From the NCBI RefSeq assembly GCF_048403405.1, contig NZ_CP183129.1: a DNA stretch of 64,000 nucleotides; one strand, given 5' to 3'. Below are positions 1-3,000 of the stretch, piece after piece; the stretch's first letter is position 1; the number at the start of each line of letters is the position of its first letter. Source of the stretch: Escherichia coli (lineage in GTDB: Bacteria; Pseudomonadota; Gammaproteobacteria; Enterobacterales; Enterobacteriaceae). The position numbers were made by a program.

Positions 1-3000
1 ATAGAGCGTGTGATAACAAATTTACTGGATAATGCTGTACGCCACACACCTCCGGAAGGCTCGATCAGGCTGAAAGTCTGGCAGGAAGATAATCGGTTGC
101 ACGTCGAAGTGGCTGACAGCGGCCCTGGACTAACTGAAGATATGCGAACTCATCTTTTCCGGCGGGCATCAGTGTTATGTCATGAACCGTCAGAAGAGCC
201 CCGGGGAGGACTGGGATTGCTGATTGTACGCAGGATGCTGGTACTACACGGTGGTGATATCAGGTTGACTGATTCAACGACTGGAGCCTGCTTTCGTTTT
301 TTTCTTCCATTATAACATCAGGCGGCATATTTTGGGGTGGTTATGTGTATCTGCCTTTGTAAAAGGGATACAAGTTCTGTAGTGGAGCACAAAATCAGGA
401 CACCGGGATAACCTGTTTCCACTTTTCTTCATGTAAGCAAGGCGGTAAACCATCGTTGTTCGTGTGAGGTCGATAAACGTTATAATATAACAACCATTAA
501 TCCACTGGTTTATATCGCGTACCGCATGGCTAAAATCACCATAACCACCTTTCGGAAGCCATTCACTTTTCAGGCTGCGAAAGACTCTTTCCATCGGCGA
601 ATTATCCAAGCAATTCCCTCTGCGACTGTAAGCGTCAACGGAGCACCGTATTGACGCTTATTTATTGGTGAGTACTACGTTCCATGGGTAAGCGTGCAGC
701 AAAAACCGTATTGACAGGGATGTGTTATTCAGTCGGCAGTGCTACGCGCCAGGGGAGCAGTTCGCCGACCCGGTTTATCGGCCAGTCGGCTATGACGTCA
801 AGGACATAGCGGAGGTAGCTTTCTGGCTCCACTCCGTTCAGTTTGCACGTCCCGATCAGGCTGTACAGCAGCGCTCCCCGCTCTCCTCCATGATCCGAAC
901 CGAAGAACAGGTAGTTTTTGCGGCCCAGACTGACCATCCGCAACGCATTTTCAGCGATGTTATTGTCCGCCTCAGCCCAGCCATCATCTGCATAGTACGT
1001 CAGCGCCGGCCACTGGTTCAGGGCGTATGCGAACGCTTTCGCCAGTTCTGAGTGTCGCGACAGGGTTTTCATCTTTTCACGCAGCCAGCTTTCCAGGGAT
1101 TTCAGCAGCGGTTTCGTTTTCAACTGACGTTCGGCAAGCCGCTGCTCCGCCGTCATTCCCCTTATCTCTGCCTCGATGGCGTACAGTTCGCCGATCCGTT
1201 TCAGCGCTTCCTCCGTCAGGGCTGACGGGGTGCGAACGTGCACATCGTGGATTTTACGGCGGGCGTGAGCCCAACAGGCGGCTTCCGTTATCCGGCCATC
1301 CCGGTACAGCTCGTTGAACCCGGCGTATGCATCCGCCTGCAGTACACCACTGAACCCCGCAAGATGGGTCTGCGGATGGATGCCTTTTCTGTCCGGGCTG
1401 TAAGCGAACCACACCGCCGGCGCCAGCGTTGACCCGGCGTTACGGTCGTCACGAACGTAGGTCCATAACCGCCCGGTCTTCGTTTTCTTATTGCCTGGCA
1501 ACAGCACCGGGACAGGCGTGTCATCAGCATGGAGCTTACCGTCAGTCAGCACATAGCCATGAAGCGCCTCTTCCAGCGGAGACAGCTGCCGGCAGCATGC
1601 ATCCACCCAGCCCGACAGCAGTGAACGGCTCAGCTCCACACCTTGCCGGCCGTATATTTCTGACTGGCGATACAGCGGGGTGTGCTCTGCATACTTCGAG
1701 GTCAGCACGCGGGCCAGCAGCCCCGGTCCGGCGATACCCCGCTCGATGGGCCGTGAAGGCGCGGGGGCCTGCACGATGGCATCGCACTGAGTACAGGCAT
1801 GCTTTTCACGTACCGTCCGGATAACCCGGAAGGCGCTGCGCATCAGCTCCAGCTGTTAGGCGGCATCCTCACCCAGATAGCTCAGCGAGCCTCCACATTC
1901 CGGGCAGCATGACGCTGCCGGCAGCAGCCGTTTTTCATCGCGGGGGAGTGATTCGGGGAACGGTTTGCGGGTGCGGGTTTGACGCAGCGGGCGCTGCACG
2001 GCCGGGTCGTCAACCCGACCGGTAAGGGTATCACTTTCTTTCTGAAGTGCCTTCAGGTCAGCTTCCATCTGTGCGATACGACGGGAGACTTTTTCGGAGC
2101 AGCTGCCGACGTTCATCCGGCGCAGCTTATCCAGCTGTGCCTGCAGATGGTCTATTTCGCGTTCACGCTCGTTCAGCTTTTCCAGCAGGGCACGGTTCAG
2201 CGCCTCCTGTTCGGCAAGGAGACGTTTCAGTGCATTGATATCGTCAGGAAGTGAGCTGCTCATACCGGGTATATTACCAGGCTCATTCAGCGTCGACCAG
2301 GATAAAGAGGCTTACAACATAGTCAGGGACGTAAGCAGTCTTTTAGGCTGCCGCCAGTCGATACCTTCCAGCAGCATCGCCAGCTGTGCCGGTGTGAGGA
2401 ACACTTTGCCATCCCGGGCTGACGGCCAGGCGAAGCGGCCGCGCTCCAGCCGTTTGGTCAGCAGACACAGTCCATCGCCGGTAGACCAGAGGAGCTTTAC
2501 CTGACTGCCATTACGCCCACGGAAGATAAAAACGTGACCTGACATCGGATCGTCTTTCAGCGTCGTCTGCACCTTTGCCGCCAGGCCGTTGAAGCCGTTT
2601 CTCATATCGGTGATGCCAGCGACCAGCCAGATCTTTGTCCCTGATGGTAATGGGATCAACGTTTGAGCTCCCGTATCAGCAGGTTCAGGATATTTTCGCT
2701 GATGGCACCATTCAGACGGAGTGATCCGTGCCGGAACGTCACTTCACAGCTGATATTGAGTGATTCAGGTGTCGCAGCAGCTACAGGTTGTGACCGGGGG
2801 GAGGTTGTAGGGACAACATCTTCGGCATCAAGTGTTATCGGGAGCAGCTCAGGCACGTTGTTTTCTGTTGTTGAAGGAGGACGTAGTTTTCCTTCGCGCC
2901 AGTACTGGCGCCACTTGAACAGCAAATTATCGTTGATCCCATGCTCACGAGCGAGTTGCGCTACGGAGATCTCTGGTCGATGCGAGAGTTCAACCATTTT

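Follow-up and report, generated by a model that had tools for sequence, protein, structure and literature searches.

Two neighboring IS66-type ends in an Escherichia coli pathogenicity island belong to two different insertion sequences

Results

Organization of the locus

The stretch of DNA analyzed here, referred to as the window, comprises 64,000 nucleotides of Escherichia coli contig NZ_CP183129.1 (RefSeq assembly GCF_048403405.1). Close to its left edge lie, in order, the remnant of a putative IS3-family element, a 60-bp piece of an IS66-family element, a full-length copy of the IS66-family element ISEc22 and the 3' part of a phosphoethanolamine-transferase gene (ept), the coordinates of which are given in Table 1. 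The 64-kb window contains only this one ISEc22 copy and only this one ISEc23-type piece, and a tRNA search of positions 1-10000 found none.

Table 1. Features at the left edge of the window
Feature	Position	Strand	Remarks
Putative IS3-family 3' remnant (last part of transposase, frameshifted)	378-627	-	cut at 627 by ISEc23-type element
CTGCGACT, 8-bp IS3-type target adjoining ISEc23-type left end	620-627	.	presumed left duplication copy, partner lost
Solo left-terminal 60-bp fragment of IS66-family element, ISEc23/ISEc47/IS682 group	628-687	-	terminal repeat about 628-657; tnpC stop 658-660 (TAA, - strand); last 9 codons 661-687, ...PWNVVLTNK*
Hairpin-forming palindrome in ISEc23-type terminal repeat, TAAGCGTCAAC...GTATTGACGCTTA	629-660	.	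predicted fold
Target octamer TTCCATGG, bp 53-60 of ISEc23-type element, adjoining ISEc22 left end	680-687	.
Full-length ISEc22 copy (IS66 family)	688-3141	-	2454 bp; left repeat 688-717, right repeat about 3113-3141
tnpC (DDE transposase) pseudogene	725-2263	-	ORFs 725-1843 and 1856-2263; RefSeq 'internal stop'
tnpB (IS66 Orf2-like accessory protein)	2312-2659	-	Pfam TnpB_IS66 1.6e-38; WP_000612626.1
tnpA (HTH accessory protein)	2656-3060	-	Pfam HTH_Tnp_1 9.1e-12; WP_000839179.1
GAATCAGC, surviving right copy of target duplication from ISEc22 insertion	3142-3149	.
Phosphoethanolamine-transferase gene, 3' part, truncated by ISEc22	3143-4123	+	Pfam Sulfatase 2.7e-34

The locus attracts attention through a pair of similar motifs. 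The string GTAAGCGT…CCGTATTGAC can be read in the sequence at both 628 and 688, a spacing of 60 bp, and a repeat search returns the pair as a direct repeat (628-655 and 688-715) of 75% identity over 28 nt with a start-to-start distance of 60. The pattern GTAAGCGT-N9-ACCGTNTNG has three matches in the 64-kb window, at 628 (+), 688 (+) and 3141 (-), whereas the chance expectation from 100 dinucleotide-preserving shuffles is 0.00. A sequence-only reading of the window had described two similar IS66-like ends 60 bp apart, and this holds except for the span of the outer one, as the string is 29 nt long and occupies 628-656, not 628-657.

The same reading placed the outer motif directly against an IS3 remnant, and this is confirmed. 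RefSeq annotates the identical locus of strain CFT073 as 'integrase core domain-containing protein; frameshifted; incomplete; missing N-terminus', and homology to other copies ends at 627. Positions 378-627 are 94.8% identical to IS3-type sequence in comparison sequence L013, and positions 528-625 are 94.9% identical to that in L003; in both, the IS3-type sequence runs on past the point where the window turns to GTAAGCG. Pfam finds no domain in the 105-aa translation of this short, frameshifted remnant. The adjoining octamer CTGCGACT was presumably once duplicated, 8-bp duplications being what copies of ISEc47 and ISEc23 produce.

The outer 60 bp are the end of an ISEc23-type element

Positions 628-687 match bp 1-60 of ISEc47 at 60 of 60 positions, in register from bp 1, and in L016, which carries the same junction, the match to bp 1-60 of both ISEc47 and ISEc23 is likewise 100%. 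Four ISEc47 copies (2541 bp, with 8-bp duplications) begin with these 60 bp and then pass from TTCCATGG directly into CAGGAGTTCG. In other genomes the 60 bp are found at 100% under the annotations ISEc23, IS682 and ISEc47, and at 98.3% under ISEc43. Judged by sequence, 628-687 is shown to be bp 1-60 of another IS66-family element, one of the ISEc23/ISEc47/IS682 group; the overall identity between ISEc47 and ISEc22 is only about 65%. So little sequence, and so conserved, does not single out one named member of the group. It agrees with the ISEc23/ISEc47/IS682/ISEc43 elements in the terminal repeat, the tnpC stop codon (at bp 31-33 of the element) and the nine final codons, and differs from them in that only 60 of about 2530-2540 bp are retained.

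The terminal repeat of this fragment is also predicted to fold. The palindrome has a predicted DNA folding energy of -12.7 kcal/mol (z = -3.93), with none of 200 shuffles as good, and the same folding test finds no comparable fold at the ISEc22 ends (z = -0.05 and +1.69). The junction between the fragment and ISEc22 is not peculiar to the window, as 628-787 is matched without interruption in about 48 genomes. It was seen in no second context, and the genomes checked, CFT073 among them, have a single locus.

The window carries a complete but decaying ISEc22 copy

The segment that begins at the inner motif is shown to be one complete ISEc22 copy, with the inner motif as its left terminal repeat. 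Compared with the ISEc22 of L006, it is 98.9% identical over 2454 bp, gapless, with 27 differences; the name follows from copies labelled 'IS66-like element ISEc22 family' by RefSeq/PGAP. Four other copies (L004, L006, L007 and L014) are likewise 2454 bp long, start with GTAAGCGTGCAGC and end with GACGACGCTTAC, and each is flanked by a perfect 8-bp target duplication: GATCATGG in L004, CATACAGG in L006, AAATCAGG in L007 and GAATCAGC in L014. The terminal inverted repeats are imperfect and begin 5'-GTAAGCG, with GTAAGCGTGCAGC... at 688 and GTAAGCGTCGTCTC... as the reverse complement from 3141, and 16-17 of the first 28 positions match. The IS66-family gene set is present by Pfam as consecutive tnpA (HTH), tnpB (Orf2-like) and tnpC (DDE), the last giving hits to DDE_Tnp_IS66 (1.1e-106), DDE_Tnp_IS66_C (7.2e-17) and LZ_Tnp_IS66 (9.5e-12). 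The window copy thus resembles ISEc22 in length, first and last bases, gene order and identity, but differs from it in three respects, namely a tnpC nonsense codon, substitutions in the left repeat and the absence of a target duplication.

The single stop codon within tnpC is a TAA at 1856-1858, where the canonical codon is GAA; position 1858 is A in the window copy and C in all six of the other full-length copies compared. The substitutions at 703 and 716 are absent from all other copies compared. With this nonsense codon and these two left-repeat changes the window copy is decaying, and it can no longer make its own transposase. An 8-bp target duplication was sought around it and is absent, with TTCCATGG on the left and GAATCAGC on the right, so that the duplication anticipated at 688 and 3141 does not exist. 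Since the sister copies have duplications and the right flank is half of a documented one, the missing duplication is the result of a later rearrangement and not the mark of another kind of element.

These comparisons also settle what the two motifs are. One possibility put forward from the sequence was a duplicated end. Both motifs would then belong to one ISEc22 variant with a tandem left terminus, and the real element would be 628-3141 (2514 bp). In its favor, the outer motif fits the right repeat better than the inner motif does, matching 20 of 28 positions versus 16-17, and pairs with the right end (3120-3141) as an inverted repeat of 82% over 22 nt. However, every ISEc22 copy with target duplications, four of them independent and 2454 bp long, starts at the inner motif, the outer 60 bp agree at 100% with the terminus of another, well-sampled group down to its stop and last codons, and the 628-787 junction, present in about 48 genomes, was seen only in this context, with a single locus in those checked. 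We therefore reject a longer ISEc22 variant, which has next to no chance of being correct. The two motifs do not make up one normal terminal repeat but are the ends of two different IS66-family insertion sequences, and they look alike because the IS66-family ends of the clade have GTAAGCGT and CCGT.T.G blocks in common, the left ends having CCGTATTGAC as well. The other possibility put forward, that the element inserted beside a solo terminal repeat left by an earlier copy, was right about the solo end but not about its origin or the placement: the solo end is bp 1-60 of an element of the ISEc23/ISEc47/IS682/ISEc43 lineage, not of an earlier ISEc22, and ISEc22 is nested within that element, past its bp 60, instead of adjoining it.

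An older ISEc22 insertion in a phosphoethanolamine-transferase gene forms the right junction

To the right of ISEc22, RefSeq labels 3143-4123 as 'phosphoethanolamine transferase; incomplete; missing N-terminus'. Strain EC12 (L015) has an intact gene of 1500 bp with no insertion and a single GAATCAGC. In strain NMBU-W13E19 (L014) an ISEc22 occupies this site between two copies of GAATCAGC. The right junction is therefore that of the original, older ISEc22 insertion into this gene. Among the copies compared, a variant block at 1557-1730, together with 2101 and 2110, is common to the window and L014 copies only. Genomes with the right junction number 107, against only 48 that have the left junction together with its IS3 flank, a difference that a later replacement of the left flank would produce. 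The lack of a duplication, taken with the age of the right junction, likewise indicates that the left flank was swapped in later.

Origin of the mismatched flanks

A single IS66 copy with mismatched 8-bp flanks has been described on Agrobacterium plasmid pAt15955, where recombination between two copies, with deletion, was inferred (PMC6778807). The present locus is similar in that each 8-bp flank would be the outer flank of a different ancestral insertion, GAATCAGC being traced to a known one; it differs in that the parent strain of pAt15955 displayed the two parental insertions, whereas here only the right-hand parent (L014) was found and the left-hand parent is one that we infer.

We consider it highly probable that the locus as a whole arose by nested insertion followed by recombination, and the left flank was most likely replaced by recombination between two ISEc22 copies. 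An ISEc23-type element would first have inserted into the IS3-family element at CTGCGACT, and an ISEc22-type element would then have entered the ISEc23-type element at TTCCATGG (bp 53-60) in the same orientation. A separate ISEc22 would have inserted into the phosphoethanolamine-transferase gene, duplicating GAATCAGC. The two ISEc22 copies, being in direct orientation, would then have recombined homologously, joining the left flank of the nested copy to the right flank of the copy in the gene. The remainder of the ISEc23-type element would have been lost along with the 5' portion of the phosphoethanolamine-transferase gene, leaving a single ISEc22 with mismatched 8-bp flanks. The tnpC nonsense codon and the changes at 703 and 716 would have followed as the surviving copy decayed.

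Part of the case for a nested copy comes from plasmid NZ_CP069544 (L012), in which the right end of an ISEc22/ISEc8 hybrid element is followed by TTCCATGG CAGGAG..., that is, by ISEc23-type sequence from bp 53 onward. This reciprocal junction argues that a complete insertion at the TTCCATGG octamer once existed, although with its ISEc8-type right end it may represent a separate insertion at the same octamer. An intermediate with both junctions of the ISEc22-in-ISEc23 insertion occurs in no genome of the collection, and a synthetic junction of the ISEc22 right end, TTCCATGG and ISEc47 bp 61-180 was found in 0 of 5426 genomes; the sole right end encountered at this octamer was the ISEc8-type one of the L012 plasmid. 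No crossover point is visible within ISEc22, where the copies are nearly identical and there are no informative sites left of 1557.

Some of these observations would also be accounted for by a one-step adjacent deletion, in which the ISEc22 resident in ept transposed within its own molecule, its left end attacking TTCCATGG in an ISEc23-type element and everything between being removed, with neither a second ISEc22 copy nor homologous recombination. Such an event would yield the exact structure seen, with the original right flank GAATCAGC, a plausible target octamer on the left and no duplication. It fits the finding that the window copy belongs to the ept-insertion lineage throughout the informative sites (1557 onward), and the lack of any genome in which a canonical ISEc22 right end is joined to TTCCATGG of an ISEc23-type element would follow if that junction had left on a deletion circle and been lost with it. 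On the other hand, the reciprocal junction at the same octamer in L012 counts against it, and the window-specific changes near the left end (703, 716 and 1139) fit slightly better with a left part derived from a different copy; of the six window-specific changes, three lie within the first 452 bp, a concentration that by a binomial estimate (p about 0.08) is only suggestive. IS66-family elements, whose transposition chemistry is not established, are not known to undergo replicative intramolecular events, which also counts against adjacent deletion. We regard this route as possible but rather unlikely. In NMBU-W13E19, the 46 kb upstream of the intact ept::ISEc22 contain no IS3/ISEc23 module, and because this strain has a different island there (with pap and capsule genes) the arrangement before the deletion cannot be reconstructed from it.

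Insertion near resident IS66-family ends

Insertions of IS66-family elements appear to be unusually frequent some 60 bp inside the ends of other IS66-family elements, a lead that we have tested in part. It is compatible with nesting followed by recombination and concerns only why the nested insertion occurred where it did. In the reading considered here, IS66-family transpososomes would be drawn to a resident IS66-type repeat and would insert about 60-66 bp inside it, a proposal that we regard as doubtful. The sample consisted of 100 distinct flanks lying upstream of left ends of the ISEc23 group, drawn from GTDB genomes and metagenomes in any context. Nine of them have another IS66-type end in the same reading direction within 800 bp, and only one has such an end in the opposite direction. 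The start-to-start distances in the nine are 60, 63, 64, 66, 128, 129, 380, 406 and 545, with a variety of resident ends. Insertion took place at the octamer bp 53-60 in both the window and L012, and at bp 52-59 in L052. In addition, on a common, IncF-type plasmid backbone, ISEc23 insertions with a separate duplication apiece occupy at least eight different positions in the bp 139-334 region of an ISEc22 remnant; the site is empty in 657 records, and in this hot region the same octamers are used in both orientations.

Several points weigh against this proposal. The numbers are small and the distance windows post hoc, and in the metagenome cases at 60-66 bp the contig stops short or the incoming element is broken up, so that the two flanks cannot be compared for a target duplication. 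Being neutral, insertions into defunct IS copies preferentially survive, and about a quarter of all flanks lie in some mobile element. The plasmid hot region is at 139-334 and not at 60, and controls with other end combinations gave nested pairs too. A preferred insertion just inside resident IS66-family ends of any subtype, with a mode at about 60-66 bp and a broader range of about 45-130 bp, is therefore put forward tentatively, as something less likely than its absence.

A bias toward same-orientation nesting near left ends was also considered and rejected as an artefact of a chimeric query. An unanchored sample gave three same-orientation versus eight opposite-orientation flanks, and with a matched query for the opposite orientation the octamers hit were again the same. 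A GTDB scan yielded only nine loci and a viral-contig scan for tandem ends two matches, one of them by chance, and both scans lack statistical power.

Discussion

The locus consists of known elements in ordinary nesting, and it is ordinary mobile-DNA debris in an E. coli pathogenicity island. The odd repeat pair is explained as two known insertion sequences, one nested in the tip of the other, and it carries little weight for the locus. What the locus does record is that recombination or deletion at ISEc22 remodelled this edge of a CFT073-type pathogenicity island and truncated a phosphoethanolamine-transferase gene. Two cautions for annotation follow, namely that protein-based annotation is blind to a 60-bp solo IS end, and that mismatched 8-bp flanks are a sign of a rearrangement breakpoint.

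End-targeted insertion is described for IS30 and for IS911, of the IS3 family. These offer a possible analogy, in that an incoming element settles next to or just inside a terminal repeat like its own, but insertion there is right at the repeat, whereas here it is about 60 bp inside the end. A search on IS66-family elements found no end-targeted insertion documented in the papers that were searchable. Little is understood of how the family transposes and selects its targets, or of what TnpA and TnpB contribute. If transpososomes are indeed drawn to resident repeats, target capture may be guided by a resident end with transposase bound to it. Pairs of IS66-type ends spaced by about 60 bp would then recur as a mark of how the family chooses its targets and would not reflect chance nesting, and a reproducible hot zone by resident ends, if confirmed, would provide a simple assay of IS66-family target choice.

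Two IS66-Family Ends from Different Elements

Two look-alike IS66-type ends 60 bp apart had been described in the sequence-only reading, and the pair is real. A repeat search of the window recovered the outer motif (628) and the inner motif (688), each starting with GTAAGCG, as a 28-nt direct repeat with 75% identity and a spacing of 60, and the pattern of their shared blocks matched three times in 64 kb, at 628 (+), 688 (+) and 3141 (-), against 0.00 expected from shuffles. The sequence runs in the order ...CTCTGCGACT, GTAAGCGTCAACGGAGCACCGTATTGACGCTTATTTATTGGTGAGTACTACGTTCCATGG, GTAAGCGTGCAGCAAAAACCGTATTGACAGGGATG... 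The first string, quoted as 628-657, does start at 628, but is 29 nt long and ends at 656. A common pattern, GTAAGCGT..a...ag..CCGT.T.ga, runs through seven left and right ends of ISEc22, ISEc8, ISEc23 and ISEc47, and CCGTATTGAC is common to the left ends of the IS66 elements compared. The motifs at 628 and 688 therefore resemble one another because terminal repeats are conserved family-wide.

The DNA between 688 and 3141 has a 100% identical counterpart in E. coli CFT073, ATCC 25922 and relatives. RefSeq labels it there "IS66-like element ISEc22 family transposase (internal stop)" and places partial genes on either side, one for an integrase core (IS3-type) and one for a phosphoethanolamine transferase (ept). 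We compared this copy with independent ISEc22 copies on plasmids of Klebsiella, E. coli and Salmonella (L004, L006 and L007) and on the chromosome of E. coli NMBU-W13E19 (L014). All four are 2454 bp long, start with GTAAGCGTGCAGC and end with GACGACGCTTAC, the bases at window positions 688 and 3141, and are surrounded by perfect 8-bp duplications (GATCATGG, CATACAGG, AAATCAGG and GAATCAGC, respectively). The inner motif is therefore the left repeat of ISEc22 and the outer motif lies outside the element, which refutes the proposal that one element has a duplicated end. The window copy aligns without gaps to the L006 copy, with 27 differences. Among the copies compared, six changes are private to the window lineage (703, 716, 1139, 1814, 1858 and 3096); those at 703 and 716 both fall within the left terminal repeat, and that at 1858 converts GAA to TAA in tnpC. 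The window copy is unable to make its own transposase, and it is degenerating, as indicated by left-repeat substitutions and a tnpC nonsense change private to its lineage.

Features of the window around the paired IS66-type ends
Feature	Position	Strand	Remarks
Sensor histidine kinase gene	1-315		3' end
IS3-type remnant	378-627		matches IS3-type sequence
ISEc23/ISEc47-type tip	628-687		carries outer motif
Palindrome	629-660		11-bp stem
ISEc22 copy	688-3141	-	carries inner motif
tnpC	725-2263	-	stop codon at 1856-1858; Pfam DDE_Tnp_IS66, LZ_Tnp_IS66, DDE_Tnp_IS66_C
tnpB	2312-2659	-	Pfam TnpB_IS66
tnpA	2656-3060	-	Pfam HTH_Tnp_1
P4-type tyrosine integrase gene	5782-7047		1.6 kb past truncated ept

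The outer 60 bp recur on plasmid pWS0115A_186 (L002), where they continue as ...TTCCATGG, CAGGAGTTCGTC... and not as ISEc22; the transposase gene that follows is only ~65-72% identical to that of ISEc22 and carries the RefSeq family label ISEc47. Four ISEc47 copies in different contexts (L008-L011), each 2541 bp long with 8-bp duplications (CGGCACTG, ATATTACG, GATATTAA and ATTGAAAG), all begin exactly with window 628-687 (60/60 identity). Because elements annotated as ISEc23, IS682 and ISEc43 start with these 60 bp too, the fragment can be assigned to this group only. In element numbering the tnpC stop codon occupies bp 31-33, with the gene's final nine codons (...PWNVVLTNK*) at bp 34-60. A strong palindrome follows that stop codon directly in the ISEc23-type terminal repeat; folded as DNA it scores -12.7 kcal/mol (z = -3.9), and folding the ISEc22 ends gave no such palindrome. 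The alternative suggestion, insertion beside a solo terminal repeat from an earlier copy, was thus right in substance, but the end comes from another IS66-family element, with ISEc22 inside it. These are known elements and ordinary biology.

Original Right Junction and Replaced Left Flank

Target-site duplication, raised earlier as a check, is absent: the ISEc22 copy is flanked by TTCCATGG on the left and GAATCAGC on the right, CTGCGACT beside the outer motif matches neither, and no combination of the flanks at 628, 688 and 3141 yields one. In NMBU-W13E19, ISEc22 occupies the same ept position, GAATCAGC flanks it left and right, and neither half of the gene is missing; in EC12 (L015) ept is uninterrupted, with GAATCAGC once. 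The window and NMBU-W13E19 copies also have in common a block of variants (1557-1730, 2101 and 2110) absent from the other copies compared. The right junction is therefore that of an original insertion, and the left flank is a later replacement. Genome counts agree: 107 genomes carry the right junction, and 48 carry the left one together with its IS3 flank.

The simplest route to this arrangement would have two steps. An ISEc23-type element seated in an IS3-type element would have received a second ISEc22-type copy at TTCCATGG (its bp 53-60), and recombination between that copy and the one in ept would then have deleted the intervening DNA. In Agrobacterium, mismatched 8-bp flanks around a lone IS66 copy have been read by the same reasoning (PMC6778807). 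On plasmid NZ_CP069544 (L012, 5681-5696), ISEc23-type sequence from bp 53 onward, reading TTCCATGG and then CAGGAG..., comes directly after an IS66 right end. It forms the reciprocal junction at that octamer and supports the two-step route, although the L012 element carries an ISEc8-type right end. One-step intramolecular transposition with an adjacent deletion would produce the same final structure, and we regard it as the less probable alternative. With respect to the two-step route, the canonical ISEc22 right end joined to ISEc23-type sequence at TTCCATGG was found in 0 of 5426 genomes, no crossover point is visible in the comparison of ISEc22 copies, and the upstream island differs in NMBU-W13E19, the strain with the intact ept insertion.

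The L012 element (3248-5688) is, like one in L005 (3004-5444), a 2441-bp hybrid of an ISEc22-like left part and an ISEc8-like right part that diverges from ISEc22 around window-equivalent position 2597 and has a tnpA of 381 bp versus 405. Because the L005 copy has a duplication, AACTGTGG, the hybrid is mobile in its own right.

The IS3-type sequence continues further in L003 and L013. In L013 (3119-5869) that sequence holds an ISEc23 copy 58 bp beyond the window's insertion site, an independent hit. This ISEc23 copy has no target duplication (TTTTATAC versus TTATCAAC); after it comes a 219-bp piece of the right end of an ISEc47-like element, so that two right ends stand 219 bp apart. As to the wider island, ARAGORN found no tRNA in window 1-10000; in NMBU-W13E19 the equivalent integrase gene is followed by tRNA-Phe (L014 8164-8239). 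In CFT073, the sensor histidine kinase gene comes after a response regulator gene and a cytochrome b gene with a frameshift.

Target Sites

ISEc22-type target octamers mostly end in GG beside the left repeat, often CAGG or CATGG (GATCATGG, CATACAGG, AAATCAGG, AACTGTGG and TTCCATGG; L004-L007, L014 and window 680-687), with GAATCAGC the exception, and 100 ISEc23-group targets show a weak G-N-W-N-N-W-N-S pattern. The octamer TTCCATGG is the junction in both the window (680-687) and L012, and bp 52-59 form the junction in the metagenome contig L052; either one ancestral event was spread by recombination or the site was used repeatedly. Two ISEc22 copies (L021 3275-5728 and L025 3238-5692; duplications GATTTAGC and CATGAATC) represent independent insertions into the same chromosomal context, at non-IS sites separated by 37 bp; they are 238 and 275 bp away from the tip of an ISEc47-type left-end remnant 159 bp long. 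ISEc43-like elements are broken at ~bp 215-220 in three contigs (L019 ~3626-5073, L063 ~3420-5031 and L065 ~10656-12159), the L019 insert being annotated as IS110-family ISEc45; this may reflect a site-specific target or one inherited event.

Nesting Among IS66-Family Elements

Insertions of ISEc22 into ISEc23-type elements were seen at bp 60 and 251, and the converse, ISEc23-type elements within ISEc22, at bp 139, 254, 285, 286, 289, 334, 406, 517 and 723. An apparent bias toward same-orientation nesting was rejected as an artefact of a chimeric query. One IncF-type E. coli plasmid backbone (haem-receptor gene, DUF4198 gene, 647-bp ISEc22 left-end remnant and IS100) has the remnant empty in 657 records. 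In backbone loci L017, L020, L022, L023, L024, L155, L156 and L157 (~3001-6187), full-length ISEc23 occurs at at least eight places within bp 139-334 of the remnant, each with its own perfect 8-bp duplication, with insertions at bp 139, 254, 285, 286, 289 and 334. Both orientations occur at bp 254 (same duplication, CCATCCGC) and bp 289 (GCCTCAGC). The whole pattern marks a regional hot spot or, possibly, in-place inversion.

Disregarding context, we sampled metagenomes and GTDB genomes for DNA flanking ISEc23-group left ends and obtained 100 distinct flanks. Of these, 11 fell in IS66-family DNA, and 9 had a resident IS66-type end in the same reading direction no more than 800 bp away, with distances of 60, 63, 64, 66, 128, 129, 380, 406 and 545 bp; the resident ends were of different kinds. 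The first six spacings belong to metagenome contigs L052, L056, L065, L063, L028 and L126, where the incoming left end lies downstream of a solo IS66-type end and distances are measured from start to start; the geometry is that of window 628-688 and the spacing nearly that, and the window's 60 bp fit the first cluster. Nested counts are inflated because insertions in dead IS copies survive neutrally. We found no account of such IS66 nesting in the literature searched, which is not proof of novelty. The spacings, in small numbers and windows chosen post hoc, suggest a hot zone ~60 bp inside any IS66-type end, and from these sequence comparisons it is possible that IS66-family elements target DNA close to one another's ends.
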